From an uncultured virus (IMG/VR IMGVR_UViG_3300035034_002688) (Duplodnaviria > Heunggongvirae > Uroviricota > Caudoviricetes): a stretch of 64,000 nt of DNA. Within the stretch, counting starts at the first letter, position 1, and each line of letters opens with the position of its first letter. This document shows, piece by piece, positions 1-13,166 of this stretch. The stretch lies in IMG/VR virus record IMGVR_UViG_3300035034_002688; one strand, written 5' to 3'. Under the pieces are notes generated by a model that had not been told where the DNA came from, made no database searches, and saw only the letters and a list, made by a program, of their open reading frames with translations. The translations under genes were made by a program, and so were the position numbers.

Positions 1-10
1 TTCTTTCTAC

Positions 11-405
11 CGGGACATCCCCGCGCACGCGGGGAACACGGGTAGAACAAGAAGATGTATGAGAGGGGATCCGGGACATCCCCGCGCACGCGGGGAACAC
101 CGGACGAGCATGGGGAGACGTATTCGCCCTACCGGGACATCCCCGCGCACGCGGGGAACACTTGAAGCTGGAAGGATGCACGAGATGTGCGTGCGGGACA
201 TCCCCGCGCACGCGGGGAACACACAGGTGTGATCACAAGAGCATGTCGCCTCATCGGGACATCCCCGCGCACGCGGGGAACACGTCAAAGCTGGTCACCT
301 TTGGAGCGTGAACGGCGGGACATCCCCGCGCACGCGGGGAACACCATGACACCGACACACCCGCACTTGGTGCATCCGGGACATCCCCGCGCACGCGGGG
401 AACAC
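11..405 (-). CRISPR. CRISPR array 1 (type I-E), 7 repeats / 6 complete spacers, probably continues beyond the left window edge
   Basis: Identical 29-bp repeat GTGTTCCCCGCGTGCGCGGGGATGTCCCG (minus strand) at 11, 72, 133, 194, 255, 316, 377; 61-bp period, 32-bp spacers; hairpin CCCCGCG/CGCGGGG typical of I-E repeats. Confidence 0.98.
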
Positions 406-524
406 TCTTCAAATGTTCAAGCCTTCGGAAGTGTACCTAACCCCCTGTATTCGCTCAGGAATTCTGTTGGCATGGGGTACACCGTTTTACTTTACCAAAT
501 CGTACCCTGCGGTACAAGCCTGAA
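406..524 (-). promoter_or_regulatory. Leader of CRISPR array 1
   Basis: Relatively AT-rich non-coding stretch between the cas8e/cas11 stop and the first repeat; IHF-like ATACAGGGGGTTA ends 32 nt before the repeat. Confidence 0.75.
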
Positions 525-2732
525 TCAGGAGGCCTTCTTGGTGGGGGCGCGGTAGTAGGTGCGCGTCCACTCCATCTGCGTCTGAGAGCCCCAGGTGAGG
601 AGGCTCAGGATGAGGTCGTTGGCGTCGGCACCCTGACCCTCAATGCGTCCGAGGACGTTGCGGAGCTGGCGCCAGTGGCCGTTCAAGGTGCCTCCCGAAC
701 ACAGGCGCTCGAACGAGCGCTCCTTGATGTCACGAGACTGCGCGAGGACGCGCGCGACGGGGCGGTTGCCCTTGAAGCCGGTGGGCTTGAGGCCCGCGAG
801 CAGGACCGCCAGGAGGAACACGCGCTCCTGCAACTCGGGGGCGTTCTCACCAAGGTTACGCTCCACCACCTTCTCCAGGGCCTTCTCCAGCAGGATGGCG
901 GGGCGCATGTAGCGTACGTCCTGGAGGTTCTTGGCGCGAGAGAGCGCGACGCGGCCGGAGCCCTTGTCGTGGTGGAGGTTGCGCCACCACTTGTGGACCA
1001 CGGAGAGGATCTCATCCTTGTGGGCGTATACGATGTTGTTCATGGGGTTCTTCTCTCTCTTGGTGGAGGTGCCGCAGAGTTTGAGGAGCTGCTTTTCGAG
1101 CCCGGCTCGTTCCCTCACGGCGGATGTGATGGTGCGGGTGTTCATGCGCGATTTGCGAGTGACACGGCCTCCAACGAGGGAGTCGAAGATCGTGAGCGCG
1201 GTGGTCGCGAGGAGGCGCTTGTAGGGCGTATAGACCATCTCCTCAAGCTCCTCCCGGTTGGTCGTGAGCTTGACCTTGGCGAGCGCGTCGTATGCAGCCT
1301 GTTCGGTGTGTGACCACAGCTCGGAGTTGTTCCGGCCTCCCAGGCAGGCGACCTTCGCGCGGAGCACCTTATCCACCTCGGACGTGAGCTTGACCAGCGC
1401 CCCGAAGGTGTCCTCATCACGCAGAGCCTGTGAGCCCTCGAAGATGAAGATGTACTTCTCGAAGAAGCTCACCGTCTTGCCCGCAAACATGTTGAATCCG
1501 AAGACACGCAGCGGGGGAAGCCCTCCCCATACCTCATCCCAATGCTCCGCGACCTCATCGTACAGGAAGGCCTTGCGCTTGGTGTGGGTGATGATTGGGG
1601 GCGTGTGGAGGGTCTCGGAGTAGGCGTGGGAACCCAGAACGTTCCACGTGCGCCTGTTGGTGACGGTCTGCACAGCGCGGACATCTTTCACATCTTTGGG
1701 GGTCCACTTGCCGTTGACGCCCATCGTCTTGAGGTTCTTGAGGGTGGTGGCGTTGTTGGGGAGCTGCCAGACACCCGACATGGGGATGCACTGACGAGAC
1801 CCCGGCAGACCTTCCCACTTCTCGGACTGCGCTGTGTAGCGCTGCCGGTTGCCCCAGGGCTGCGCATCCACGTAGTCCAGGAGCCCGTCCTCATCCGGCT
1901 CCGGCAGGACCCACTCACGCGTGAGGTGCCAGAACGCGGTCAAGGGGTGGTAGTCCAGGTCGTGAGCGCGCCACCCCTCGATCTGACTCTCTTCGACCCA
2001 GGGGAACTCGAACTCGGGGACGGTCTCCTGTCCCCACAGAGCGTTGATTTCAGGTTCAGTGAGGATGTTGTTGAGGACCTCCTCGCAGAGGTCGCGGCCG
2101 CTGAAGACGTACCACAGGCTGCCGTTGTTTCCGTAGCCGGGTCGCGATGTGCCACGTGAGAACTTGTTCCCCGCGTCCATGCGAAACTCGGCCGCCAGGA
2201 TGAACGCGATGGCGTCCCCAGGCGTCAGACGCTGCCGGGGATCACGGCCCAAGTCCATGCTGAAGGGGAGCGGCCGCGTGACCTTCTCCGAGTCGAAGTC
2301 GAAGCCTGAGGAGGAGGACCCCAGCGCGTGCGTGTTGAAGCGGTAGCGGCCTATCTCAGTGGCGCACGGCAGGTCGGACTTCTTGATCTTTCTGATATCT
2401 TCGGTCCACTCGCGCAAGGCGGGCGTGGCCTGGAACGCACGGTACCCCGGCCCGTAGACGTCGAAGAAGTCTTCCTCACTCAGAAAGCGCTTCTTGAAGT
2501 CGAGGTTCTCGCCGCGCGTCAGGTGCATCTCGACCCACTCGTCGTCGTCCTTGGGCGCGGCCACCGTCTGGACCAGTGCCTGAATGAAGTGTCGGACGCC
2601 CTCATTCATTACGGAGTGGGGGTAGTCGAGCTTGAGGCCGGGTTCCGTGAACTCGTGCGGTCGGATGAGCTTGGACTTTCCCGTGGCGTCCTGAACCCGA
2701 ATCCAAGCGTCGGTCATGAGATTGAGTGACAT
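525..2732 (-). CDS. cas8e: Cas8e (Cse1) fused in frame to a C-terminal Cas11 (Cse2)-like domain
   Basis: N-terminus MSLNLMTDAWIRV typical of Cse1; last 172 aa from Met at 1043 (KWWRNL..GSGRVALSRAK...RSFERL...LILSLLTW...EWTRTYY) resemble Cse2; lies next to cas5e and the array. Confidence 0.8.
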   Translation of the reverse strand: MSLNLMTDAWIRVQDATGKSKLIRPHEFTEPGLKLDYPHSVMNEGVRHFIQALVQTVAAPKDDDEWVEMHLTRGENLDFKKRFLSEEDFFDVYGPGYRAFQATPALREWTEDIRKIKKSDLPCATEIGRYRFNTHALGSSSSGFDFDSEKVTRPLPFSMDLGRDPRQRLTPGDAIAFILAAEFRMDAGNKFSRGTSRPGYGNNGSLWYVFSGRDLCEEVLNNILTEPEINALWGQETVPEFEFPWVEESQIEGWRAHDLDYHPLTAFWHLTREWVLPEPDEDGLLDYVDAQPWGNRQRYTAQSEKWEGLPGSRQCIPMSGVWQLPNNATTLKNLKTMGVNGKWTPKDVKDVRAVQTVTNRRTWNVLGSHAYSETLHTPPIITHTKRKAFLYDEVAEHWDEVWGGLPPLRVFGFNMFAGKTVSFFEKYIFIFEGSQALRDEDTFGALVKLTSEVDKVLRAKVACLGGRNNSELWSHTEQAAYDALAKVKLTTNREELEEMVYTPYKRLLATTALTIFDSLVGGRVTRKSRMNTRTITSAVRERAGLEKQLLKLCGTSTKREKNPMNNIVYAHKDEILSVVHKWWRNLHHDKGSGRVALSRAKNLQDVRYMRPAILLEKALEKVVERNLGENAPELQERVFLLAVLLAGLKPTGFKGNRPVARVLAQSRDIKERSFERLCSGGTLNGHWRQLRNVLGRIEGQGADANDLILSLLTWGSQTQMEWTRTYYRAPTKKAS

Positions 2733-2773
2733 GGTGTGTCTCGTAGGTAGAGAGGGGAGGTGGGGAGGCGCGC

Positions 2774-3484
2774 TCAGAGCGTGTGCATGTGGGCGCTAAA
2801 CTCGCGCCGCACCTTGTGGGACCCTTGACGGGTCAGATCGTGGGGCACATCACGACGGAAGGTTGACCGTCGGCTACCTTCGAGGCCAAAGTCTTCATCC
2901 CAGAACACCTGTCCCGGCACCACGGTTCGGTCAAGGTAGTAGAAGCTACTCGCCACGGCCTCCTCCAGACACTCACGCGGCGTGGTGGACTGTAGGACCC
3001 GTGGATTGAGAGGCGCGCTTGGCGGACAGCTCTTGCGGCCAAAGTAGATAGGCCAGTAGGGACGCTGGAGCGCCGCGATGATACCGTCGACGTCCTCGTC
3101 GGGTACCTGGAGCAGGACCACCCAGGTCTGGTCCTGGAGGTAGTACCTCTCCGAGGTCAGGGAGTCCGTCTTGGGGCTTTGCGGGTCCAGCTCCTCCTGG
3201 CGCGTGGTCACGTAGCCCTTGAAGCAGCGGATGAGGTGGTAGTCTCGAAGCGGCGGGGGGCTCACCGAGGCTCCCTCAAGCTGGAGCTGGACGCACGCCA
3301 TCTTGATGGTGTTTGCCAGCCTCTGGTGGTGAGCCTGATCGTCACGCTCGATGCCTTGCGCGCACGCGATCATCCCGAGTATGGCCGATTTCGTCGGGCT
3401 CTGGTCCGTCGTGCGCAGCGCCGCGCGCGCCGCGTTTCCGAAGCTCATGAGAGGGGCTCGAATGTCGCAGGCGAGTGTTTGCAT
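2774..3484 (-). CDS. cas5e: Type I-E Cas5
   Basis: APLMSFG...RTT..SPTKSAILGMIACAQGIER, RYYLQD, IYFGRKSCPPS motifs; start MQTL at 3484 preceded by AAGGAGG. Confidence 0.93.
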   Translation of the reverse strand: MQTLACDIRAPLMSFGNAARAALRTTDQSPTKSAILGMIACAQGIERDDQAHHQRLANTIKMACVQLQLEGASVSPPPLRDYHLIRCFKGYVTTRQEELDPQSPKTDSLTSERYYLQDQTWVVLLQVPDEDVDGIIAALQRPYWPIYFGRKSCPPSAPLNPRVLQSTTPRECLEEAVASSFYYLDRTVVPGQVFWDEDFGLEGSRRSTFRRDVPHDLTRQGSHKVRREFSAHMHTL

Positions 3485-3495
3485 AGGTACCTCCT

Positions 3496-3538
3496 TTGTG
3501 GTACTCAAAAGATACCACAAGGTTCAAGATGGGGTCAA
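3496..3538 (-). promoter_or_regulatory. sigma70-like promoter for cas5e-cas8e/11 with inverted repeat
   Basis: TTGACC-N18-TATCTT with TGTGG extension; arms TTGTGGTA (3496-3503) and TACCACAA (3513-3520). Confidence 0.6.
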
Positions 3539-3548
3539 GTGGTTCGAT

Positions 3549-4280
3549 TCAGAGGGCCACAAGGGCGGCGGCGGGCTTGAGAAGGACAAGGCCGGCCCCG
3601 AAGGCCTTGCCCCGACCGATGCCGTTGCGCCACAGGGTCACGAACTTCTCGGGGTCGGTGACCTCGACGCGCGCCTCAAGCTGCACGAAGTCCATCGTAA
3701 TGGGGTTGCGCCGTCCCACGCCCTGCTCGGAGAACACGGGGGTCAAGGCGGTGACCCTGTGCAGCTTGAAGCCGCCGTCCTCCGAGCGCCTCTCAAGCCA
3801 CTCGAAGAGGAGGGCGTCGAGGTCGCGAGGCGTCTCCCCATTCGCTTCGCACATGAGCTTCTCGTAGGTCTGGAGACCCAAACGCTTGGAGCGCCCCTTG
3901 GGCACGATCCGCTCGTCACGGGTACAGACGGTGGCGTTGACCCATGCTCGGAGGTCGAGGCCGGCACCCATGTGCATCGTGGGCTGCTCGATCGTCTTGG
4001 TCAGAAGCTTCACGTAGCCGTGAGGGTCCGAGGGGATCTCCGTGGACTGGATGTAGAAGGAGGAGCCCTTGAAGGGGGTGAACATGAAGGGTCGGTCTTT
4101 GCGGTCCTCCACCGGGTCGAAGAGGTCCCAGACGAACTGGTGTGCGGTGTAGATGCCCTCGGACGTGTAGCGGGAGAGCTGCTCGATTCCCTTGGCCGTG
4201 AAGGTGGCGCGTGAGATGTAGAGAGGGGTCGAGGTGGGGGGTGTGGTGGTGTTGAACGGGATGTTGACTTGCGTGCTCAT
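3549..4280 (-). CDS. cas6e: Type I-E Cas6 endoribonuclease
   Basis: HQFVWDLF, LRAWVNAT, WLERRSEDGGF and C-terminal Gly-rich loop GIGRGKAFGAGL; start MSTQ at 4280 with GGAG RBS. Confidence 0.93.
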   Translation of the reverse strand: MSTQVNIPFNTTTPPTSTPLYISRATFTAKGIEQLSRYTSEGIYTAHQFVWDLFDPVEDRKDRPFMFTPFKGSSFYIQSTEIPSDPHGYVKLLTKTIEQPTMHMGAGLDLRAWVNATVCTRDERIVPKGRSKRLGLQTYEKLMCEANGETPRDLDALLFEWLERRSEDGGFKLHRVTALTPVFSEQGVGRRNPITMDFVQLEARVEVTDPEKFVTLWRNGIGRGKAFGAGLVLLKPAAALVAL

Positions 4281-4290
4281 TGATAACTCC

Positions 4291-4351
4291 AAAAATACCC
4301 CCGCACGAGGCGGGGAGGTTGAGAGGGGACCCCCGCGTGAGCGGGGAAAGG
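4291..4351 (-). repeat. Degenerate CRISPR-repeat copy plus second GC hairpin between cas7 and cas6e
   Basis: 4351-4325 reads CCTTTCCCCGCTCACGCGGGGGTCCCC (array 2/3 repeat lacking 2 nt in the 3' handle); 4318-4291 reads CCTCCCCGCCTCGTGCGGGGGTATTTTT. Confidence 0.75.
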
Positions 4352-4356
4352 GGCAC

Positions 4357-5703
4357 TCACTCGGCGGCGGCGGTCTCGGAGGCCTCCACGGCGATACCGA
4401 GCGTCTGGTAGATGGCATCCACGATGTCATCCAGGGTCGTACACACCTCGCCGCCCGACTCCAGGGCCGTGAGGTCCTTGGTCGAGGACCACGTGAGGAC
4501 ACGCTCATGGTCGACGCCCACGCGGGTCACGATGCGGTTGTGGTGGTCCTCCAGGCGCGTGAGGGCCATCTGAAGAGGATCGTTGGACTCCACAGGCACC
4601 AGGAACGCGTCGGTGTACTGAGTGTTCTGGGTCTCCCCGATGGTCACCATCAGGTAGGGGGACGGGATGCTCGCAGCCATCGTGGACTGGTTACCCGAGG
4701 GGCGCACCATCACGAGAGCCTTGACGAAGGCGTGGATGGTCTCACGGAGGAGGTCCTCCTGACCGCTCCCGAAGCGGCGAGCCAGCTCACCGATGTGGAG
4801 GCCCACGTAGGCGTAGTTGACGCCCGAGGTGAAGCTCTTGTGGCCCATATGCGAGGCGCCCGTATTGGAGTTGAAGCAGTCCTGAGCCGAGAAGAAGTCG
4901 TCCTCCTCGGGCATCACGCCGACGCCGATGGTGTGCGCGAACTGGACGCAGGCCGCTTCATTGTCCTGTGCGAGCTGCGCGACCATGCGGCCGAAGAGGC
5001 TCACGTCGACGTTGGGCATCCTCGTGAGGTCCGTGAAGCTCTTCGCGGTCTCAGTCAGGCTCTCGAAGACGACGGAGGGGTCCGTGAAGTCCAGACCCAC
5101 CAGCGCCTCGAAGCCCAGCGTCAAGACCTCCTGCTCCGCCTGCTTGAGCTTGATGGCCGAGCCGAACATGCGGCCGTCCTTCTTGTCGCTCTTTTTGTTC
5201 TTCTTCTTCTTGGTGTCTCCTTCGGACTCGTTCGACTCGTCGTCGAGAGCGTCCTTGGTCGAGTACGGCGTGATGCCTCCCTCGGCGTACAGGGTACCAT
5301 CCGCGATGAGGCCCTTGAGGAGCGTGAGAAGCGCCGCTTCGGTCTTCTTGGTGAGCTTGGCGCCCTTGAAGCACTGCGTGAAGAAGTTCGGCGTCGTCAT
5401 CATGTAGGCGAGCAGCGCGGCGGCTCGATACGACCTCTCAGCCTCCTGGCCCGCCTCGACGGCCTTCTCACTCTTGAAGACCAGGAACGATCTCGTGTTG
5501 TCGCTCATGACCTTGCGCTGACGGAGCACATCGAAGTGCATGGAGGCACGAATCGCCGCCTTCTCCGCTTGGCTGGAGATGCGGTAGCGCATGGCGTTCC
5601 CGAAGAAGGAACTCTTGGGGTTACCCGCGTCATCGCGGTTGATGTTGCTGGGGGGCAGCACACCGAGCATGTGGAACTGGAGCTTTGTTTTCACGTTCAT
5701 CAT
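4357..5703 (-). CDS. cas7: Type I-E Cas7 (Cse4) backbone
   Basis: PPSNINRDDAGNPKS..FG..RYRISSQAEKAAIR and VDVSLFGRMVA motifs. Confidence 0.95.
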   Translation of the reverse strand: MMNVKTKLQFHMLGVLPPSNINRDDAGNPKSSFFGNAMRYRISSQAEKAAIRASMHFDVLRQRKVMSDNTRSFLVFKSEKAVEAGQEAERSYRAAALLAYMMTTPNFFTQCFKGAKLTKKTEAALLTLLKGLIADGTLYAEGGITPYSTKDALDDESNESEGDTKKKKNKKSDKKDGRMFGSAIKLKQAEQEVLTLGFEALVGLDFTDPSVVFESLTETAKSFTDLTRMPNVDVSLFGRMVAQLAQDNEAACVQFAHTIGVGVMPEEDDFFSAQDCFNSNTGASHMGHKSFTSGVNYAYVGLHIGELARRFGSGQEDLLRETIHAFVKALVMVRPSGNQSTMAASIPSPYLMVTIGETQNTQYTDAFLVPVESNDPLQMALTRLEDHHNRIVTRVGVDHERVLTWSSTKDLTALESGGEVCTTLDDIVDAIYQTLGIAVEASETAAAE

Positions 5704-5773
5704 GTCTGGACTCTCACTACAGTGGGTAAAAGGACCTTCGAGCTTTCAGAGGCTTCGTGCCTCGACGGAAACG

Positions 5774-5830
5774 ACACTAACTCCGATGTTAGAGCAGTGT
5801 CAAGCGGTTTCTTTAACGCTTGACACTGCT
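5774..5830 (-). promoter_or_regulatory. Putative cas7 promoter overlapped by a 14-bp perfect inverted repeat
   Basis: AGCAGTGTCAAGCG (5793-5806), 10 nt, CGCTTGACACTGCT (5817-5830); minus strand TTGACA followed by TAGTGT. Confidence 0.6.
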
Positions 5831-5850
5831 GTGCGGTATGAAAAAAAGAC

Positions 5851-8481
5851 CTAGAGGACTTGGAGTCCCAGGATGTGGTCGTAGATGAGGGTGACGGATA
5901 CCGGGGCGCCCTTGGGGGAGAGCTTGGTCATGTTGACCCTCCACGCGTCGGCGGGTGCGCTGAGGTCGTCCACGGTCACGATCAACACGGAGTCGGTAGA
6001 GTGGAACGGGAGCTGCGCCAAAAGTTCGTGCTGCTCCGGGCTCGGGTCGAGCCGCTCTCCGGCCATGTACATGGGGATAGCGATGCCAGAGGCCTTGATG
6101 CCTCCGTTGTGGATACGCCGGAGTCGATCGCCGTCAACGAAGTGGACCTCCCAGATGCACGTAGGGATGGCGTCTCGGGTGTGTATGGCCACGTTCTTAC
6201 CCCACTTGCTGACCGACTCACGGTAGCTGCGGGTGAAGTCGAGAGACCCCAAAACAGCCGATGCTCGCGTCTCCTGGTCACGGGCGGTGGAGGCTTGGTG
6301 CGAGCGGGCCAGACCGGCCGGAATCAGTGCGTTGATGTCGTCCAGGATCTCACGCGTATGGGTGGGAAGCTCCCAGGACCTCAAGGCACACATCGCCGCG
6401 CTGGCGTACACACGGCCTGCATCCCCATAGACGTAAGATGTCCCCCCATGATGAGGGGAGCCGCTGAGCCATTGAGCGTGTGGAGTCCCGGCCAAGGAGG
6501 GCGTGAACAGGCCCATCTCGACGTGCACCTCTTCCCCACTCTCGTGACGCAGGACGCGACCCGAGCGCTGAATCAGGAGGTCGGCCTCGCATACATCGGA
6601 GACGCCCCAGTCAAAGCTGACATCCAAAGACTCCTGGAGCACCTGCGTGCATATGACGATGTAGCCCTCACGCTCTTGGGGATCGGCGCCCTTACCGAAG
6701 CGACGCAGCACCTCGGCGTCACGTACCTCACGGTGTCCGACCGTGTAGCGAGAGTGCAGCAAGAGCACTCGGTCATACCCTGACAAGGCTTCATAGGCCG
6801 CACAGGCGGCGCGCACGGTGTTTCGGAACCACACCACCGCCTCACCTCGGTTGGCTCGCCGGTGCAGCTCTTCCACGATGGGGTCGAGCCCACGCCGATC
6901 CTCTTCAAAGACGTTCCAGTGCACGTGCCGGATCTGGTGTGCGTCCACCGAGACCACGTTGATGTGGCCGCTGGAGCTGACGTGCGTGAGCGCGGGCAAG
7001 GGGACATCGGGGAGGTCTACAACCTCTCCTCGATACGCGGAGGCGAGCGCGCGGCGTGTCTTGGAGTCGCAGGTGGCGCTCATGGCGATCACGGGCTGTC
7101 CCTGTCGCCCGCAGTAGGCGAGCAGGTTACAGAGCAGAGGGAGCATGTGAGCGTCGAAGGCGTGGACCTCATCTATCAGAAGCACGGTACGGGTGAGCGC
7201 GCTCAGTCGCATGGGCGCAAAGTATCGCCCGATCGTCGCCAGGAGGGCTTGGTCTATTGTGCAGACATTGATTTGCGAGAACATGCTCTGTCGGGAGGAC
7301 TTGAGCAGCCACTCGGAGGCGCTAATCAGGCCTCCATTCGAGTTGCGTTGAGCCTTCCACGGCTTGAATTCACTTCGAGTCGAGTGAATGAGCGCCATCG
7401 TGACGGGCTCATCAAAGGTTGCCTCCGTCCAGGCGTGCGCACGCCCGTAGAGGCCGTTGGCGGTAGCGCGAGTAGGCAACGCCAACGTCAGCCCTTTGTA
7501 GTCGCCATCACGCATCATCTGACGCGCGAGCGCGAGCCCTACCTCCGTCTTACCCGCCCCCGTAGAGGCCTCGATGAGGACAAACCCGTCCGCAGAACTC
7601 AAGAGGGTCTCAGCACCTACCTGGAGAGGCCGAGGTTCCCAGGTATCGTCGAGGAGACCGCTCCAGAAGGAGTAGGTGGTAGAGAGGGGCGTGTAGAGGA
7701 TCTCCACGTCTGTACACGCCCTCTCCGCTTGAGGCTGTGCGATGGTCTCCCAATAAGCTCTCGGGTCCATACGCGCGCCACGCAGCGGGAAGTATTCAGG
7801 CGTGGAGCCCAGCCAATCCGAGATCATCCCGACGCCCGCCAGGAGGTAGCTCGCGAAAGGCAGGTCCGGAGGGTTGGAGTAGTCGCCACGCATGGGTCCA
7901 AATACGCCCTGGATGATTTCGGAGAGGTACGCAGTCAGGCGCTCGTCGCACCCAGGCACTCCCCACTGGAGCTGAGCCGTACGTGGGGTGGCGCCTTCTC
8001 GCTTCTGATGAGGCAAGGCGTAGCCGTGATGGCTCAGCGCGCTATGCAGCAGCGTCGTGATGTGGCGTCGTTCCTGACGCCCAGTACCGCTCTTGAGGTA
8101 CTCCCGGATCACGTTCCTGCGTTCCCATCCCACCAGATCGTGACGGGCTTCGGTCTCACGCGCACCATCAGGCTGGGGGGTGATATCCAGGAGCGTACAG
8201 GCGGGTGCGCTTCGAGCCTGGAAGTTGTCCGTGAGCTTACCGATGTCATGGCAAGCGTAGAGCATGGGGAGGTCATGCCACAGGTCGTACATGCTCACAC
8301 CCAAGGCCTCCGACAAGGGACGCCACCAACGCTCCTCGTGCCTGAGCAAGTGATTCACGACCGCCGCGACGTCGAGGTTATGATACACCACGCGGTGAAT
8401 GGCAGTCACGGCCTCTTGTGAGCCGGGAGGCTGGTCTGTCTTGGCCCAACAGTCCCACATACCGATAGGTTTGGTCGTCAT
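5851..8481 (-). CDS. cas3: Cas3 HD nuclease-SF2 helicase
   Basis: WAKT, HNLDV, CHDIGK, SHHG, SDWLGS (HD domain); EASTGAGKTE, LPTRAT, DEVH, SAT, LHSRY, TQV..SLD, QRSGRVLRH (helicase). Confidence 0.97.
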   Translation of the reverse strand: MTTKPIGMWDCWAKTDQPPGSQEAVTAIHRVVYHNLDVAAVVNHLLRHEERWWRPLSEALGVSMYDLWHDLPMLYACHDIGKLTDNFQARSAPACTLLDITPQPDGARETEARHDLVGWERRNVIREYLKSGTGRQERRHITTLLHSALSHHGYALPHQKREGATPRTAQLQWGVPGCDERLTAYLSEIIQGVFGPMRGDYSNPPDLPFASYLLAGVGMISDWLGSTPEYFPLRGARMDPRAYWETIAQPQAERACTDVEILYTPLSTTYSFWSGLLDDTWEPRPLQVGAETLLSSADGFVLIEASTGAGKTEVGLALARQMMRDGDYKGLTLALPTRATANGLYGRAHAWTEATFDEPVTMALIHSTRSEFKPWKAQRNSNGGLISASEWLLKSSRQSMFSQINVCTIDQALLATIGRYFAPMRLSALTRTVLLIDEVHAFDAHMLPLLCNLLAYCGRQGQPVIAMSATCDSKTRRALASAYRGEVVDLPDVPLPALTHVSSSGHINVVSVDAHQIRHVHWNVFEEDRRGLDPIVEELHRRANRGEAVVWFRNTVRAACAAYEALSGYDRVLLLHSRYTVGHREVRDAEVLRRFGKGADPQEREGYIVICTQVLQESLDVSFDWGVSDVCEADLLIQRSGRVLRHESGEEVHVEMGLFTPSLAGTPHAQWLSGSPHHGGTSYVYGDAGRVYASAAMCALRSWELPTHTREILDDINALIPAGLARSHQASTARDQETRASAVLGSLDFTRSYRESVSKWGKNVAIHTRDAIPTCIWEVHFVDGDRLRRIHNGGIKASGIAIPMYMAGERLDPSPEQHELLAQLPFHSTDSVLIVTVDDLSAPADAWRVNMTKLSPKGAPVSVTLIYDHILGLQVL

Positions 8482-8744
8482 GTAGCTCTCAGCTTGGCGA
8501 GATGAATGGCGTGCTTGTATTTGGCCGATTCCACGTAGGTGGAGCTTCCCAGGAGCTTCGAGCCTCCTGACGAAGAGAAGAAGCGGGCGAGGTAGGGGGG
8601 GTTCTTCTTGTAGGAGGTCTCGGAGCGGTGAATCTCCATACGACCCTCGGGGACCTCACATGTGAAGTAGCGCGTAAGCCCAGCGGGACCGTGAACTTCC
8701 CATTGCAGCGTCTTGGAGAGCTTCTCGGCAGCCGTGATTTCCAT
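8478..8744 (-). CDS. Hypothetical protein (88 aa) translationally coupled to cas3
   Basis: Start MEIT at 8744 overlaps upstream stop (TGATG); its stop overlaps the cas3 start (ATGA). Confidence 0.65.
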   Translation of the reverse strand: MEITAAEKLSKTLQWEVHGPAGLTRYFTCEVPEGRMEIHRSETSYKKNPPYLARFFSSSGGSKLLGSSTYVESAKYKHAIHLAKLRAT

Positions 8745-9112
8745 CAAGCCACCTCTACGGGCGCGCCGCACAGGTGGCAGAACTGCGAGGCGGGGATCAG
8801 CTCAGTCCCGCAGTTGTGGCAATACACGGCCTTACGGGGACCCTCCACCTCGAACTCCCCGAGCAGGTCGAGGTACGTATCATCCCTGCATCCCGCCAAG
8901 GAGAGTCGAATGCCGGGGAGGAGGTCGTCGTGGTGGTAGTCATGACCCTTGTGCAACAAGGTCGCGTTGTCTGCGTTGGGGGGACCCTGGAGGTCATTGA
9001 CCCTACGCCCTCCAGGCTTGAAGACCCATAGCCGCACGGGGTACCCTCGATCAAACTCCAGCTCTCCGGTGCGACCTGTTGTGGATGCGACTTCATACTC
9101 ATGATGTTTCAT
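8744..9112 (-). CDS. Hypothetical protein with C-terminal zinc ribbon
   Basis: AGGAGG RBS; CHNCG...FCHLCG at C-terminus. Confidence 0.75.
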   Translation of the reverse strand: MKHHEYEVASTTGRTGELEFDRGYPVRLWVFKPGGRRVNDLQGPPNADNATLLHKGHDYHHDDLLPGIRLSLAGCRDDTYLDLLGEFEVEGPRKAVYCHNCGTELIPASQFCHLCGAPVEVA

Positions 9113-9115
9113 ATC

Positions 9116-9162
9116 TCAACCTCCTGTGGTCTGTATATACCACAGGAGGTTGAAGCTGTAAA
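9116..9162 (-). promoter_or_regulatory. Promoter of the orf-orf-cas3 unit inside a 15-bp perfect inverted repeat
   Basis: TTTACA-N17-TATATA; arms TCAACCTCCTGTGGT (9116-9130) and ACCACAGGAGGTTGA (9139-9153). Confidence 0.7.
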
Positions 9163-9495
9163 AGGAAAACCCCACGTGTGTGGGGAAGGGGCGCGTAACT
9201 GCGGGGGAGGTCGTAGGAGCAGGGGAACATCCCCGCGTGTGCGGGGAAGGGCAACTGTATCAACTCAGCGTCCGGGAGTACGTGGGAACATCCCCGCGTG
9301 TGCGGGGAAGGGTTTTTGGGCGATCTTGCCCCTTTGGATGATCGGGGAACATCCCCGCGTGTGCGGGGAAGGGTTGAGCGTGTCGGCGGCGTCGTCGAGG
9401 GCGTAGGGGACATCCCCGCGTGTGCGGGGAAGGGGCGCTGACGCGCTCCCCCAAGACCGTGATCGTGGGGACATCCCCGCGTGTGCGGGGAAGGG
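9162..9495 (-). CRISPR. CRISPR array 2, 6 repeats (last degenerate) / 5 spacers
   Basis: Repeat CCCTTCCCCGCACACGCGGGGATGT(T/C)CCC (minus) at 9223, 9284, 9345, 9406, 9467; degenerate trailer at 9162; 32-bp spacers. Confidence 0.97.
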
Positions 9496-9645
9496 TCTGT
9501 GCCAAGAAGTCACATGCGTTAGATCGCGTAAGTATTCGGTTTTCAAAGACTTCTCAGATCCAGCGCCGTTCGGTGCCACCCTTGAGCGACCTCTCCGAGG
9601 TCCTTATGGTAACCTTGGAGAGGGAGACCTGTCAAGCCTCTTTCA
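9496..9645 (-). promoter_or_regulatory. Leader and promoter of array 2
   Basis: Homologous to the array 3 leader; TGAAAGAGGCTTGACA...TACCAT promoter-like element. Confidence 0.8.
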
Positions 9646-9666
9646 CAGCCTCGAAGAACACGGGGA

Positions 9667-9704
9667 GGGGACATCCCCGCGTGTACGGGGAAGAGTCTGT
9701 GCCA
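9667..9704 (-). repeat. Solitary CRISPR repeat with 9 nt of leader junction
   Basis: TGGCACAGA + CTCTTCCCCGTACACGCGGGGATGTCCCC, 171 bp upstream of array 2. Confidence 0.85.
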
Positions 9705-9842
9705 TACGTGTGAACTTGAGCATGGGGAAGTCCTCAAAGAAGAAGTAGGGGTCCACGGATTTTCGAGGGTAGCGAAAAAAGCAGCATTGGTAACCTCTTT
9801 TGGCAGGGATACCACAACCACCTCCCCCACGTCAAGGGGGTA

Positions 9843-10439
9843 TTACGTGCTCCAACGTGCGCCGTGGAACGTGTGCTCCACATCTCGTCCAGCCTGATCC
9901 GGGAAGACGGGATGCTGGGCAGAGTAGCCCAAGGTCAGGAGCTTGAGGTAGGCCATGTAGCAGGGGTTGAACAGGACCTTGATGTCGAAGTGGTTGAGCC
10001 CTGACCCCTTACACTTCTGCTCCAGCGTGGAGATGTAGGGACACGTGATCTCCGTGCTGTCCCAGTTGTATCCTTCCACGAAGGCGGAAGCGGCGGCATC
10101 CTCCGCCCACTGTCGAACCTTGGTGAGGGTGTCCAGGGGGCGATCACGAACTCGTCGGTGCTTGATCGCCTCCTCAAACACCAGATCGTATTCACGCTGG
10201 AGGTAGTCCTGAAGACGCAACCCCTTCGAGGCGGAGGTACGACGTGGGCGAGCCCCAGCACCAAGAGCTGCTTCACGTGCAAGCGTGAGGGTCTCCTCCT
10301 TGGTTCGGTAGCTCGGATCTTCGGCCGTGATCAGGCCCGCCTGGATGGCGGTCGTAATCGCGACGCGGTAATGCGCGGTCTCTGGCTTTGTATCGTAGAA
10401 CTCGACAGCTTCCAGGACGTCTTGTGCGGTGGGCTTCAT
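9843..10439 (-). CDS. Hypothetical protein
   Basis: 198-aa ORF with GGAG RBS; no recognised motif. Confidence 0.7.
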   Translation of the reverse strand: MKPTAQDVLEAVEFYDTKPETAHYRVAITTAIQAGLITAEDPSYRTKEETLTLAREAALGAGARPRRTSASKGLRLQDYLQREYDLVFEEAIKHRRVRDRPLDTLTKVRQWAEDAAASAFVEGYNWDSTEITCPYISTLEQKCKGSGLNHFDIKVLFNPCYMAYLKLLTLGYSAQHPVFPDQAGRDVEHTFHGARWST

Positions 10440-10492
10440 TTGAAGGCTCCAGGTTGTAGATAGAGTTAAGGATCGCGCTCTTGTTGCTTGCC

Positions 10493-10867
10493 TCAGGATT
10501 TACTTCCAATGCGTAGGGCGGTACCCGAGCGCGCGTTGCCACCCACGCTCAAGCATGTGAGAGAGGTACCCGCGCGTACATCACCTGCGATGCCCTCCCC
10601 TACAGTCACGCTGCCTCCCGCCTTCACCTCTCCCGTCACACTGCCCCTTTCCACGTGTACGGACCCCACATCGCCAGGGAGGGTCACGCGGAACTCTTCA
10701 TTGTCCGTGACCACCTCTCCATGCACTTCATCATCGACGAGGATTGTGTACCGTACGACGACCTTCACGCCCTTCCGCTCTTCGCGCGTCCCACCTCCAA
10801 TAGAAATGTGCGCGCCCGAGATGGTAGAGTTGGAGATGTTCCCCGAGATCGTGATGTTCTTGCTCAT
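10493..10867 (-). CDS. Small Gly/Val-rich beta-solenoid (bactofilin/polymer-forming-like) protein
   Basis: Repeats GDVGSV, GSVTGEVKAGGSV, GDVRAGTSL, GNARSG; AGGAG RBS; upstream TGTGGTAC promoter. Confidence 0.6.
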   Translation of the reverse strand: MSKNITISGNISNSTISGAHISIGGGTREERKGVKVVVRYTILVDDEVHGEVVTDNEEFRVTLPGDVGSVHVERGSVTGEVKAGGSVTVGEGIAGDVRAGTSLTCLSVGGNARSGTALRIGSKS

Positions 10868-11000
10868 GTGCCTTTCTCCTGAGTGTGAAACGGGTCAGAT
10901 AGGATGTACCACAGCACATGAGCGATGGTAAAGCACGAAAAAGCCCCTCCGTGCGGCAGCTCTTCAGCTACGACATGGAGGGGCTTTGAGGGGTCGATCT

Positions 11001-11360
11001 TCAGACGCTCAGGGAGGCCTTGCCGTAGTACGAGTTGGACATCGCGGACGCCTTCCAGCCCCACTCGTCACGGCAATACTGCAAGAACTGAGACCGCTCC
11101 AGAACCACCTCTTCCTTGACAGACATGCTGAACATGTCGATCACCTCCTCGTAGTCCTTGACATGGCTCGTAGGGCACTGACCCTCAAGCCTCTTGAGCT
11201 TCCGGGGGAAGGACGTGAGGTCCGAGACATCCATCTCCTCACACGTCTCCTGGAGGTCCTCGCGCCACAGCTTGAGCGCCTCCAGGTAAGTCTTCTCGTG
11301 CGTCTCCATGTTAGCTTCGAGTCGCTCCAGCAACTCCTCCGTCTTGACCGTAACCTGCAT
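11001..11360 (-). CDS. Hypothetical phage protein
   Basis: Likely start MQVTVK at 11360 after GGTGGAG; helical, charged 119 aa. Confidence 0.7.
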   Translation of the reverse strand: MQVTVKTEELLERLEANMETHEKTYLEALKLWREDLQETCEEMDVSDLTSFPRKLKRLEGQCPTSHVKDYEEVIDMFSMSVKEEVVLERSQFLQYCRDEWGWKASAMSNSYYGKASLSV

Positions 11361-11457
11361 CTCTCCACCTCTGTACATGCCCATCTTGATATCCTCGATC
11401 GCGAGTGAGCGTCGAAGGTAACTCAGACATGCCTCGCCGTCAAGTCGGGGGGTATCT

Positions 11458-11627
11458 TGAAAGAGGCTTGACACATCCGGCGTGTTGCGGTTACAGTAAT
11501 GAAGCCTGGAGCGGTGGAGAGCGGTGGAGAGCGGTGGAGAGCGGTGACCTTGTTTGGCACCGAACCTGAGAAGTCTTTGAAAACCGAATACTTACGTCAT
11601 TCCGCTCATGTGACTTCTTGGCACAGA
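11458..11627 (+). promoter_or_regulatory. Leader and promoter of array 3, containing (GCGGTGGAGA)x3.6
   Basis: TGAAAGAGGCTTGACA...TACAGT; leader blocks CTGAGAAGTCTTTGAAAACCGAATACTTACG and CATGTGACTTCTTGGCACAGA identical to the array 2 leader. Confidence 0.8.
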
Positions 11628-12227
11628 CCTTTCCCCACGCACGTGGGGATGTTCCCATGTAGCAAGACATGTAGTAGGAGGCGCTGGGCCTTTCCCCACG
11701 CACGTGGGGATGTTCCCTACAGGAGTTCCTTGGGGGCTATCTGAGGGGGCCTTTCCCCACGCACGTGGGGATGTTCCCGTGGGGCGGTCTGGATGAGGCA
11801 GGCATCCTCACCTTTCCCCACGCACGTGGGGATGTTCCGCGTCCGCATCAAGGGCCGCAACCTGGGTGGGCCCTTTCCCCACGCACGTGGGGATGTTCCC
11901 TCACCTCGAAGGGTCCCCGCCCCCTCAAAGTCCCTTTCCCCACGCACGTGGGGATGTTCCCTTCCTCCAGGATCTCAGTGTCTTCGGGAACGTCCTTTCC
12001 CCACGCACGTGGGGCTGTTCCTGTTCCTGTTCCTGTTCCTGTTCCGCCTTGGCTCCCAGGACCATCGCTCGTGACGAGCCCTTCCCCGTACACGCGGGGG
12101 TGTTCCCTCTGTGCTACCGCAGCGTCGACCTTGGCCCCCTTCCCCGCACACGCGGGGATGTCCCGTCCAAAATCGTCCGTGGTCCCCCGTGAGGCCCTCT
12201 TCCCCACGCACGTGGGGACTTTGTTCC
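11628..12227 (+). CRISPR. CRISPR array 3, 10 repeats / 9 spacers, degenerate distal end
   Basis: Repeat CCTTTCCCCACGCACGTGGGGATGTTCC(C/G) at 11628, 11689, 11750, 11811, 11872, 11933, 11994; variant repeats at 12079, 12137, 12197. Confidence 0.97.
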
Positions 12228-12276
12228 TCTCCTTATATGCTGTATCCCTGGAGACCCACCACTTTGGAGCAGGCAC

Positions 12277-12897
12277 ATGGCTTTTGATTTTCTCGGTACC
12301 TTTACGCGACCTCAGCTCGACGCGTTGGATACGTTCGTCCGTGCTCATGCCGTCAACGCGGCTCAGCGGATCACGGCTATCAAAGGGGAGATAGAGCGCC
12401 TCGGATGGCTGGAGTACGACTTCAATGAGGAGGGACAACGCGTGGGATACCGCGTCGCTCCGGAAGGCAGCACGCTCCACAGGTACGCGATGGCGTTTGC
12501 CTATGAAGGGGGAGACCTCAACGCCTTGCAGATCCGATCACGAGGAGACTGGATCTACCAGATCAAGGGGGAGTGGGACCTTCGAGAGGACGTGGCCTAT
12601 GCCGGAGGCGTCCCCTCGGAGGGTGAGTACCGGGACAGCGGCGGGCTCTACAATGATCAGGAGCCCGGCACAGAGGTGGAGAGGTTCAAGGAGCTGGTGA
12701 TCCCGAGCCTGAAGCGCCGGCGCGAAGACTCCGAATACCGCGTCAAGAGGACCGTGGACCGCTCCGACCAGCTCATAGAGGAGTTGATCCTGCTCATCAA
12801 GAGGACCACAGGAGCCGAGACCCTGGACGCGTTGCGCATCAACCTGGACTTCATGCTCGCGTCCGGGGACTATCCCTCGGCCACCAGCGACACCTGA
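12277..12897 (+). CDS. Hypothetical protein
   Basis: 206-aa ORF, GGAG RBS, GC3-rich codons. Confidence 0.8.
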   Translation: MAFDFLGTFTRPQLDALDTFVRAHAVNAAQRITAIKGEIERLGWLEYDFNEEGQRVGYRVAPEGSTLHRYAMAFAYEGGDLNALQIRSRGDWIYQIKGEWDLREDVAYAGGVPSEGEYRDSGGLYNDQEPGTEVERFKELVIPSLKRRREDSEYRVKRTVDRSDQLIEELILLIKRTTGAETLDALRINLDFMLASGDYPSATSDT

Positions 12898-13166
12898 CCC
12901 CCCGGAGACCTAATCCAGATGGAGTATGTTTCCGTCTTTGAGGGCCAACAGGTCAAGACCTGCCAGGAGGGCCTCAAGGTCTACATGCTCGGGGAGAGTC
13001 AAGACGAACATCTCTTCAACCTCCTGTAGAAGAGAGTTCTTGGGAAGACGCTTTGTGATTTCGTTCCGCGCTTCGTCCCGCCTTTTGGCGAGCTGGGCCG
13101 GAGTCTCCTCTTCAAGGGGGGGTCGGAGGGCGAAGAGATGTCTGCTCAGTGCGGCCTGCGAGTGTG

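Follow-up and report, generated by a model that had tools for sequence, protein, structure and literature searches.

Probable remains of a collapsed CRISPR array between cas7 and cas6e in a huge-phage type I-E locus, and their possible recognition by Cas6e

Introduction

In a type I-E CRISPR-Cas locus carried by a huge-phage fragment, two short hairpins lie between the stop codon of cas7 and the ribosome-binding site of cas6e. Their position raises two questions: where the hairpins came from, and whether the nuclease encoded immediately downstream may act on the message that encodes it. Hairpins recognised by Cas6f (Csy4) have been engineered into mRNAs, which are cut and insulated at these sites; a hairpin placed just upstream of the ribosome-binding site gives the mRNA a defined 5' end. 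To date, the regulation described for stray repeats in natural cas loci is that of a guide, in which a spacer pairs with a promoter. If Cas6e cuts the messages described here, the phage would shape its own gene expression with a CRISPR nuclease.

Cleavage by Cas6e enzymes takes place at the 3' base of the repeat stem, and the enzyme remains bound to the hairpin; in the same cited part of PMC5965381, H20 of E. coli CasE is given as catalytic and Cas7 as present in six copies per complex. In the cited sections of Al-Shayeb et al. 2020 (PMC7162821), the CRISPR-Cas systems of huge phages are described as lacking cas1, cas2 and cas4 and as having compact arrays, with a median of six repeats. Neither an array or hairpin at the cas7-cas6e junction nor an action of Cas6e on its own mRNA or on cas mRNA was found described in the open-access literature that was searched.

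The cas locus of the window

The stretch of DNA that was analysed, called the window here, comprises 64,000 nucleotides and belongs to a virus record (G000; 125,429 bp, 27% complete, 61% GC) in which repeats of two types form five arrays and also occur singly at several places. The type I-E effector set of the window is complete, and all of its genes are on the minus strand: cas3 (876 aa; 5851-8481; Cas3_HD and cas3_core), cas7 (448 aa; 4357-5703; Pfam PF09344, Cas_CT1975, E = 5.6e-58; TIGR01869, 182.1 bits), cas6e (243 aa; 3549-4280; PF08798, E = 1.8e-22; TIGR01907, 73.7 bits), cas5e (2774-3484) and a cas8e-cas11 fusion (735 aa; 525-2732; PF09481 at residues 4-500 and TIGR02548, Cse2, at 579-729). 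The likely start of cas5e is ATG 3484, which follows the Shine-Dalgarno sequence (SD) AAAGGAGG; on a longer reading, from TTG 3520, the protein matched TIGR01868 with 142 bits. In the alignment to 4qyz_K, H47 of Cas6e was aligned with catalytic H20 of E. coli CasE. This histidine is invariant in the Cas6e clade; the window enzyme also keeps the G-rich loop and looks active from its sequence. Elsewhere, the window encodes phage replication functions and tail-like proteins.

The same unusual gene order, cas3-cas7-cas6e-cas5e-cas8e::cas11, was found in a locus (L009) of a complete phage (G001; 437,490 bp, with direct terminal repeats), in which cas8e and cas11 are likewise fused (9700-11877). A search with PF01867 gave no Cas1 match in either genome, of which G000 is a fragment (27% complete) and G001 is complete; the control was positive in 7 of 14 genomes. 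The fragment to which the window belongs is that of a huge phage, and its type I-E system is rearranged and cas1-less. Both phages resemble the huge phages of PMC7162821 in that Cas1 was not found and the arrays are compact; the cited sections of that paper deal with class 2 systems and a variant of type I-C, and not with a rearranged type I-E system that has arrays between the cas genes and upstream of other genes. In the type I-Ea locus of C. diphtheriae an array also interrupts the row of cas genes. As set out in the cited part of PMC12231136, that array lies at a different junction, between cas3 and cse1, the locus is cellular and has cas1-cas2, and no link to the start of cas6e is described. 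No description was found of the present layout, in which a cas1-less type I-E system of huge phages has a cas8e-cas11 fusion, arrays interspersed among its cas genes, and terminal repeats that abut the starts of downstream genes.

Array 1 (11-405, minus strand) has seven repeats in the window and one beyond its start, with the repeat GTGTTCCCCGCGTGCGCGGGGATGTCCCG. Array 2 (9162-9495, minus strand) has five repeats and a degenerate terminal repeat with a U-rich tail. A solitary, well-kept repeat with its own leader-end motif was also observed at 9667-9695 (minus strand; 38.4 bits). A promoter-like site (9835-9806) precedes it, and array 2 begins, with its first repeat, about 170 nt further downstream. 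The leader region of array 3 contains 3.8 tandem copies of GAGCGGTGGA, and 5.2 copies of CTGTTC occupy the place of a spacer in that array (window 11509-11546 and 12015-12045); a similar run of CACCGCTC was seen upstream of the array at 22.8 kb.

Two repeat-like hairpins between cas7 and cas6e

All elements of the cas7-cas6e junction are on the minus strand and were read directly. The cas7 stop codon (TGA, 4359-4357) is followed by 5 nt and then by the first hairpin, hp1 (4351-4325), a degenerate CRISPR repeat in sense orientation that reads CCTTTCCCCGCTCACGCGGGGGTCCCC. Its stem is formed by 4346-4341 with 4336-4331, or seven pairs if the closing U-G is counted, and its loop is TCAC. A remnant of 8 nt (4317-4324) separates it from the second hairpin, hp2 (4316-4298), in which 4315-4310 pairs with 4304-4299, a further U4316-G4298 pair is possible and the loop is CTCGT. 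The same CCCCGC/GCGGGG stem is present in both hairpins. The two stems are 15 nt apart (4330-4316), compared with about 45 nt in a normal array unit, so there is no spacer between them. The cas6e 5'-UTR (4281-4297) consists of TATTTTT (4297-4291), the SD GGAG (4290-4287) and 6 nt before the ATG (4280-4278), and hp2 ends 18 nt upstream of this ATG; the window sequence here reads CCTCCCCGCCTCGTGCGGGGGTATTTTTGGAGTTATCAATG. The sequence-only reading had noticed a second CCCCGC/GCGGGG hairpin with TATTTTT next to the cas6e ribosome-binding site, and this is what was seen at hp2.

The identity of hp1 as a CRISPR repeat was supported by several measures. The pattern CCCCGCNNNNGCGGGG occurred 14 times in the window and not once in 100 shuffles; 13 of the 14 matches were inside arrays and the remaining one was hp1. 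A covariance model was built from 34 array repeats of the window phage and its relative, with hp1 and hp2 excluded. In the repeat alignment all 168 stem cells paired across 28 distinct repeats, and at one stem position a G-C pair was switched to A-U in 12 of these 28; the repeat stem is under structural constraint. With this model hp1 scored 22.3 bits (E = 1.3e-5), true array repeats scored 31-43 bits, and hp2 scored 8.8 bits (E = 1.9), which is no significant repeat match on its own. The claim of a CRISPR repeat in sense orientation just after the cas7 stop was thus confirmed, and hp1 is a fairly well kept repeat. Its best pairwise partner was the repeat shared by array 2 and the array at 113 kb, which it matched at 25 of 29 positions. 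It had been said to lack only AT from the 3' handle; the 2-nt gap in the handle is real, and the wording was slightly overstated, since two substitutions were found besides.

As a substrate of Cas6e, a sense-strand hairpin with a GC-rich stem of six or seven pairs and a tetraloop is expected. This was found in hp1, and hp2 has the same stem with a 5-nt loop. The 8-nt 3' part of the repeat, here ATGTYCCC, which becomes the 5' handle of the crRNA, is intact in neither: hp1 has GTCCCC, 2 nt short, and hp2 has GTATTTTT. Regular spacers of about 32 nt are absent from hp1 and hp2, and the true arrays of this phage have a period of 61 nt. The nucleotide after the expected cut site is G rather than A in both hairpins, as it also is in a few array repeats. 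Fold energies were similar for hp1 (-13.1 kcal/mol), hp2 (-12.6 kcal/mol) and an array repeat (-14.3 kcal/mol).

The whole junction region folded no better than its shuffles (z = -0.29), and no Rfam family reached its gathering score in the window. Among the sequencing runs listed for window 3400-6000 there were none of RNA; of three DNA runs, one yielded a contig identical across the full stretch, possibly the origin of this DNA, and short fragments came from elsewhere, with the junction covered by none of the other runs. A helix that would mask the SD, formed with CUCUC upstream of hp2, appeared in the minimum-energy fold and was absent from the centroid fold; it was rejected, given that the region folds like shuffled sequence. 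The string CTCAACC occurs both in the left flank of hp2 and, within array 2, at a junction of spacer and repeat; at 7 nt this match is too short, and it was rejected as a link between hp2 and array 2.

Transcription of cas6e

Promoters were sought with our own regular expression, TT[GT]ACN-17/18-TGnTA, which is blind to other kinds of phage promoter. It matched four times in window positions 1-13000, each time on the coding strand and 20-30 nt upstream of an SD and ATG; mononucleotide shuffles gave a mean of 0.24 matches and a maximum of 2 in 200. Four such sites were also found in L009, including one before cas3 and one before cas5e (8892-8920). The motif was absent between cas7 and cas6e in both the window and L009.

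One promoter-like site of the window, TTTACA-17-TGgTATATA (9134-9162, minus strand), lies after array 2 and before an ORF with a Zn ribbon. It is the likely start of a unit that comprises this ORF, a 97-aa ORF, cas3, cas7, hp1, hp2 and cas6e. Another, TTGACC-18-TGgTATCTT (3509-3538, minus strand), lies in the cas6e-cas5e gap and opens a second unit with cas5e and cas8e-cas11. A generic scan added a weak sigma-70-like match inside cas3 (8409-8380). We infer a unit of cas3, cas7 and cas6e, in which cas6e comes last. As no promoter of the phage's own type was found between cas7 and cas6e, the cas6e message should carry the Cas6e-type hairpins, and the earlier claim that a repeat lies inside the cas mRNA upstream of cas6e was supported.

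A perfect 14-nt inverted repeat, CAACCTCCTGTGGT / ACCACAGGAGGTTG, was observed after the promoter-like site at 9134-9162 (window 9115-9162, minus strand). It spans the -10 region together with the SD that serves the Zn-ribbon ORF (ATG 9112), and a similar TGTGGTA / TACCACA pair is present upstream of cas5e (3520-3490). These inverted repeats may be an operator or an RNA switch. The 97-aa ORF of the window is unlike the 96-aa ORF of L009.

The same junction in a related phage

The order in L009 is cas3, cas7, six sense repeats (7403-7740), cas6e, seven repeats, cas5e, cas8e-cas11 and nine repeats, with further arrays upstream of cas3. At the cas7-cas6e junction, where the window has hp1 and hp2, L009 thus has an array. 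The last repeat of this array, GTTCCCCACATGAGTGGGGATAATTCAAAGGAAGAACAATG, is degenerate; with a score of 21.3 bits, it has decayed to the same degree as hp1. Between the end of its stem and the cas6e ATG there are 19 nt, compared with 18 nt for hp2, and the stem is followed by an AU-rich stretch, an SD and the ATG, arranged as in the window. Conservation in related phages had been named as a check by the sequence-only reading; the one relative compared has a six-repeat sense array at the same junction with like spacing to the ATG, and the comparison of the junction rests on two genomes, the window phage and L009. The two loci are 34% identical in Cas7 and 39% identical in Cas6e.

Close relatives of the two proteins were few. 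In a word-indexed protein search, the closest Cas7 besides that of the window was P0004 (33% identical), and the Cas6e query returned only itself and one weak match; the window Cas7 was 33-34% identical to the Cas7 of P0004 and L009 with its C-terminal extension included. An exhaustive protein search placed Cas6e in a clade with four members (P0123-P0126; 37-41% identity), of which P0123 is the L009 protein. Among viral contigs, Cas6e alone found nothing, a Cas6e alignment found only the L009 contig, and neither P0124 nor P0126 was found; P0125 and P0004 derive from Logan contigs. A scan of metagenomes with lysine-rich patterns returned only ordinary gut type I-E loci. In genome contigs there was nothing for Cas6e, and Cas7 retrieved 80 ordinary type I-E loci, mostly actinobacterial. 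Among GenBank phages, Cas7 had three distant matches and Cas6e had none. Scans with the leader motifs identified a third related fragment (G002, IMGVR_UViG_3300012271_000928; 127,707 bp), which carries both array types and both leader motifs and has no Cas7 match in its assembled part. A candidate Cas6e of this fragment (15.7 bits) was dropped, as the ORF belonged to no Cas family.

A control set of 93 other type I-E loci (L010, 12 metagenomic and 80 genomic loci) was searched with a simple spaced-repeat detector. Spaced repeats that start within 1.5 kb after the Cas7 match were found in none of these 93 ordinary type I-E loci; one small match, in L104, was coding sequence and was rejected. 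Several ordinary actinobacterial type I-E loci (L026, L028, L041, L084 and others) have a two-copy spaced repeat about 4.6-5.2 kb upstream of cas7, which may correspond to the cas3-cas8 mini-arrays of Shmakov et al.

Probable origin of the hairpins and the possible action of Cas6e

Since L009 has an array at the same junction, with a terminal repeat at matching spacing from cas6e, hp1 and hp2 were read as a collapsed array. They are very probably the spacerless remains of a CRISPR array that once lay within the operon. Ancestrally, an array would have stood between cas7 and cas6e, and its spacers would then have been lost. The sequence-only reading had missed this origin, which is an addition to it. 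By this account hp2 would be the old terminal repeat, the 3' part of which now forms the 5'-UTR of cas6e with its AU-rich stretch and SD. Such a fate is in keeping with the degenerate, leader-distal terminal repeat of an array, which hp2 resembles, and hp1 less so, in that the stem is kept and the 3' part is lost, a loss that is common in last repeats; similarly low scores (21-31 bits) were obtained for the repeats that end arrays 2 and 3 and the arrays of L009. Unlike an ordinary terminal repeat, hp2 has no array upstream, and its decayed 3' part also serves as the cas6e 5'-UTR.

If cas6e is read from a cas3-cas7-hp1-hp2-cas6e transcript, Cas6e is likely to bind both hairpins, since both are intact stems of its own repeat type. 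It would probably also cut at the 3' base of these stems. Cutting is less sure than binding because of the G after the cut site, the shortened handle of hp1 and the 5-nt loop of hp2. On balance, we favour the view that the hairpins are bound or cut by Cas6e in vivo. Cutting would leave the cas3-cas7 RNA with a protein-capped hairpin at its 3' end, and the cas6e mRNA would begin about 18 nt upstream of its AUG; binding without cutting would place Cas6e near its own SD, within the ribosome footprint. In either case the output of cas6e would be uncoupled from that of cas7 and would depend on Cas6e. The gene for a six-copy subunit, cas7, is upstream of the hairpins and that for a single-copy subunit, cas6e, is downstream, an order that fits the idea of stoichiometric control and is no test of it. 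A selected effect on Cas7:Cas6e dosage is more doubtful and is put forward tentatively, and a regulatory role through Cas6e is plausible. A collapsed array together with the predicted action of Cas6e is the best overall explanation, held with moderate confidence.

The same array could have collapsed and left a relic with no selected role, so that any contact with Cas6e would be incidental and without effect on expression. Loss of arrays is under way in the window, where the array that L009 carries between cas6e and cas5e is wholly gone, and the hairpins could for this reason be mere leftovers. The decay of hp2 to 8.8 bits and the deletion in the hp1 handle point the same way, and in the cited part of Shmakov et al. 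(10.1101/2023.03.03.530964) some stray repeats were judged to be degraded and non-functional. However, decay has affected the loops, flanks and spacer of hp1 and hp2 and has left both stems fully paired, although the intact stem of hp2 is partly a selection effect, as this hairpin was picked out by its stem. The spacing from hairpin to ATG has also been kept across phages with Cas proteins that are only 34-39% identical, and simple recombination between repeats would leave one repeat, or repeats together with whole spacers, rather than two repeats 15 nt apart. A neutral relic was therefore considered unlikely.

The second hairpin had been proposed as an attenuator. Followed by its U-run, hp2 would act as a leaky intrinsic terminator that reduces read-through from cas7 into cas6e, and Cas6e would not be involved. 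A terminator scan did flag 4316-4298 with TATTTTTGGA, as it did the last repeats of array 2 (9185-9170, with the tail TTTTCCTTTT) and array 3 (12201-12218), and a terminator after the gene for the six-copy subunit would suit the stoichiometry of Cascade. However, the equivalent repeat of L009 is followed by ATAATTCAAAGG, and its tail, AUAAUUCAAAGG, contains no U-tract. The U-run of the window is itself interrupted (UAUUUUU) and overlaps the 5'-UTR, and terminator-like matches in the region were no more frequent than in shuffles (9 versus 7.8, sd 2.9). With no cas6e promoter downstream, termination could at most be partial, as full termination would silence cas6e. Given the lack of a U-run in the relative and terminator matches at the level of shuffles, the attenuator was not supported and has a low probability; a degenerate repeat that once ended an array is the better reading of hp2.

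The reading as a collapsed array acted on by Cas6e also differs from the known regulatory elements of cas loci. In the cited parts of Shmakov et al. (10.1101/2023.03.03.530964) and of the CreR report (10.1101/2023.03.10.532045), elements in cas loci are likewise derived from repeats and proposed to regulate cas genes, and hp1 and hp2, as two repeat-like units within a cas locus, are similar at first sight. If they formed a mini-array of this kind, the RNA between the repeats would guide Cascade to a cas promoter and cause autorepression. Those elements are guides, with two repeats around a spacer that partly matches a promoter, and as described there the type I-E cases lie beside cas3 and cas8, between the two genes, with a promoter-matching spacer of about 30 nt. 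With 15 nt between stems in place of about 45 nt, no guide segment and a site between cas7 and cas6e, hp1 and hp2 do not qualify as such a mini-array, and this explanation is very improbable. Without a spacer, the hairpin itself and Cas6e must account for any effect. Solitary repeat units carried by phages are known as RNA anti-CRISPRs (PMC10651486, cited part), and a Racr-like decoy that titrates the Cas6, or another Cas protein, of a competitor was regarded as the most improbable explanation, because the repeats match the arrays of the phage itself and sit in its own cas operon between two effector genes, do not qualify as a Racr, which would mimic the repeat of the host system that it inhibits, and would make no sense at that place as a decoy against the phage's own system.

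Repeats ahead of other genes

Repeats just upstream of genes were not confined to cas6e. In G001, all 58 strict repeat matches were on one strand. Seven of the 12 groups of at least two repeats end, at their last stem, 10-26 nt upstream of the SD and ATG of an ORF of 84-241 aa; the seven genes are cas6e and six small ORFs (groups in L106, L107, L109 and L009). Searches of Pfam gave no family for these six small ORFs, nor for two ORFs of the window. In G000, outside the window (G000:C1:27757-27772), a full copy of the array 1 leader is followed by a single repeat, 48 nt before the ATG of a gene, so that a lone repeat is located in a 5'-UTR. The leader-end motifs are common to the related phages.

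This pattern suggests that the repeats may serve as RNA-processing signals ahead of genes. The broader proposal, that in this lineage of huge phages repeats were co-opted as general RNA-processing signals in 5'-UTRs and that Cas6e became an mRNA-maturation nuclease of the phage, is speculative, and we rate it as improbable. If it is true, messages would be trimmed to a defined start just upstream of the ribosome-binding site, and the expression of a set of phage genes, as well as the Cas7:Cas6e ratio, would be tied to the level of Cas6e. The repeats would then do in nature what Cas6 'insulator' hairpins do in engineered mRNAs; compared with the laboratory design that uses Csy4, the arrangement of hp1 and hp2 would be a natural one, predicted from sequence.

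Repeats in sense orientation also lie between co-oriented tRNA genes in a further region of G001 (L108; G001:C1:126000-128500), with scores of 39-44 bits; the distance to the tRNA gene that follows is, for example, 35 nt for tRNA-Val and 32 nt for tRNA-Met. One 'tRNA-Gln' call made by ARAGORN in this region overlaps a repeat-like match.
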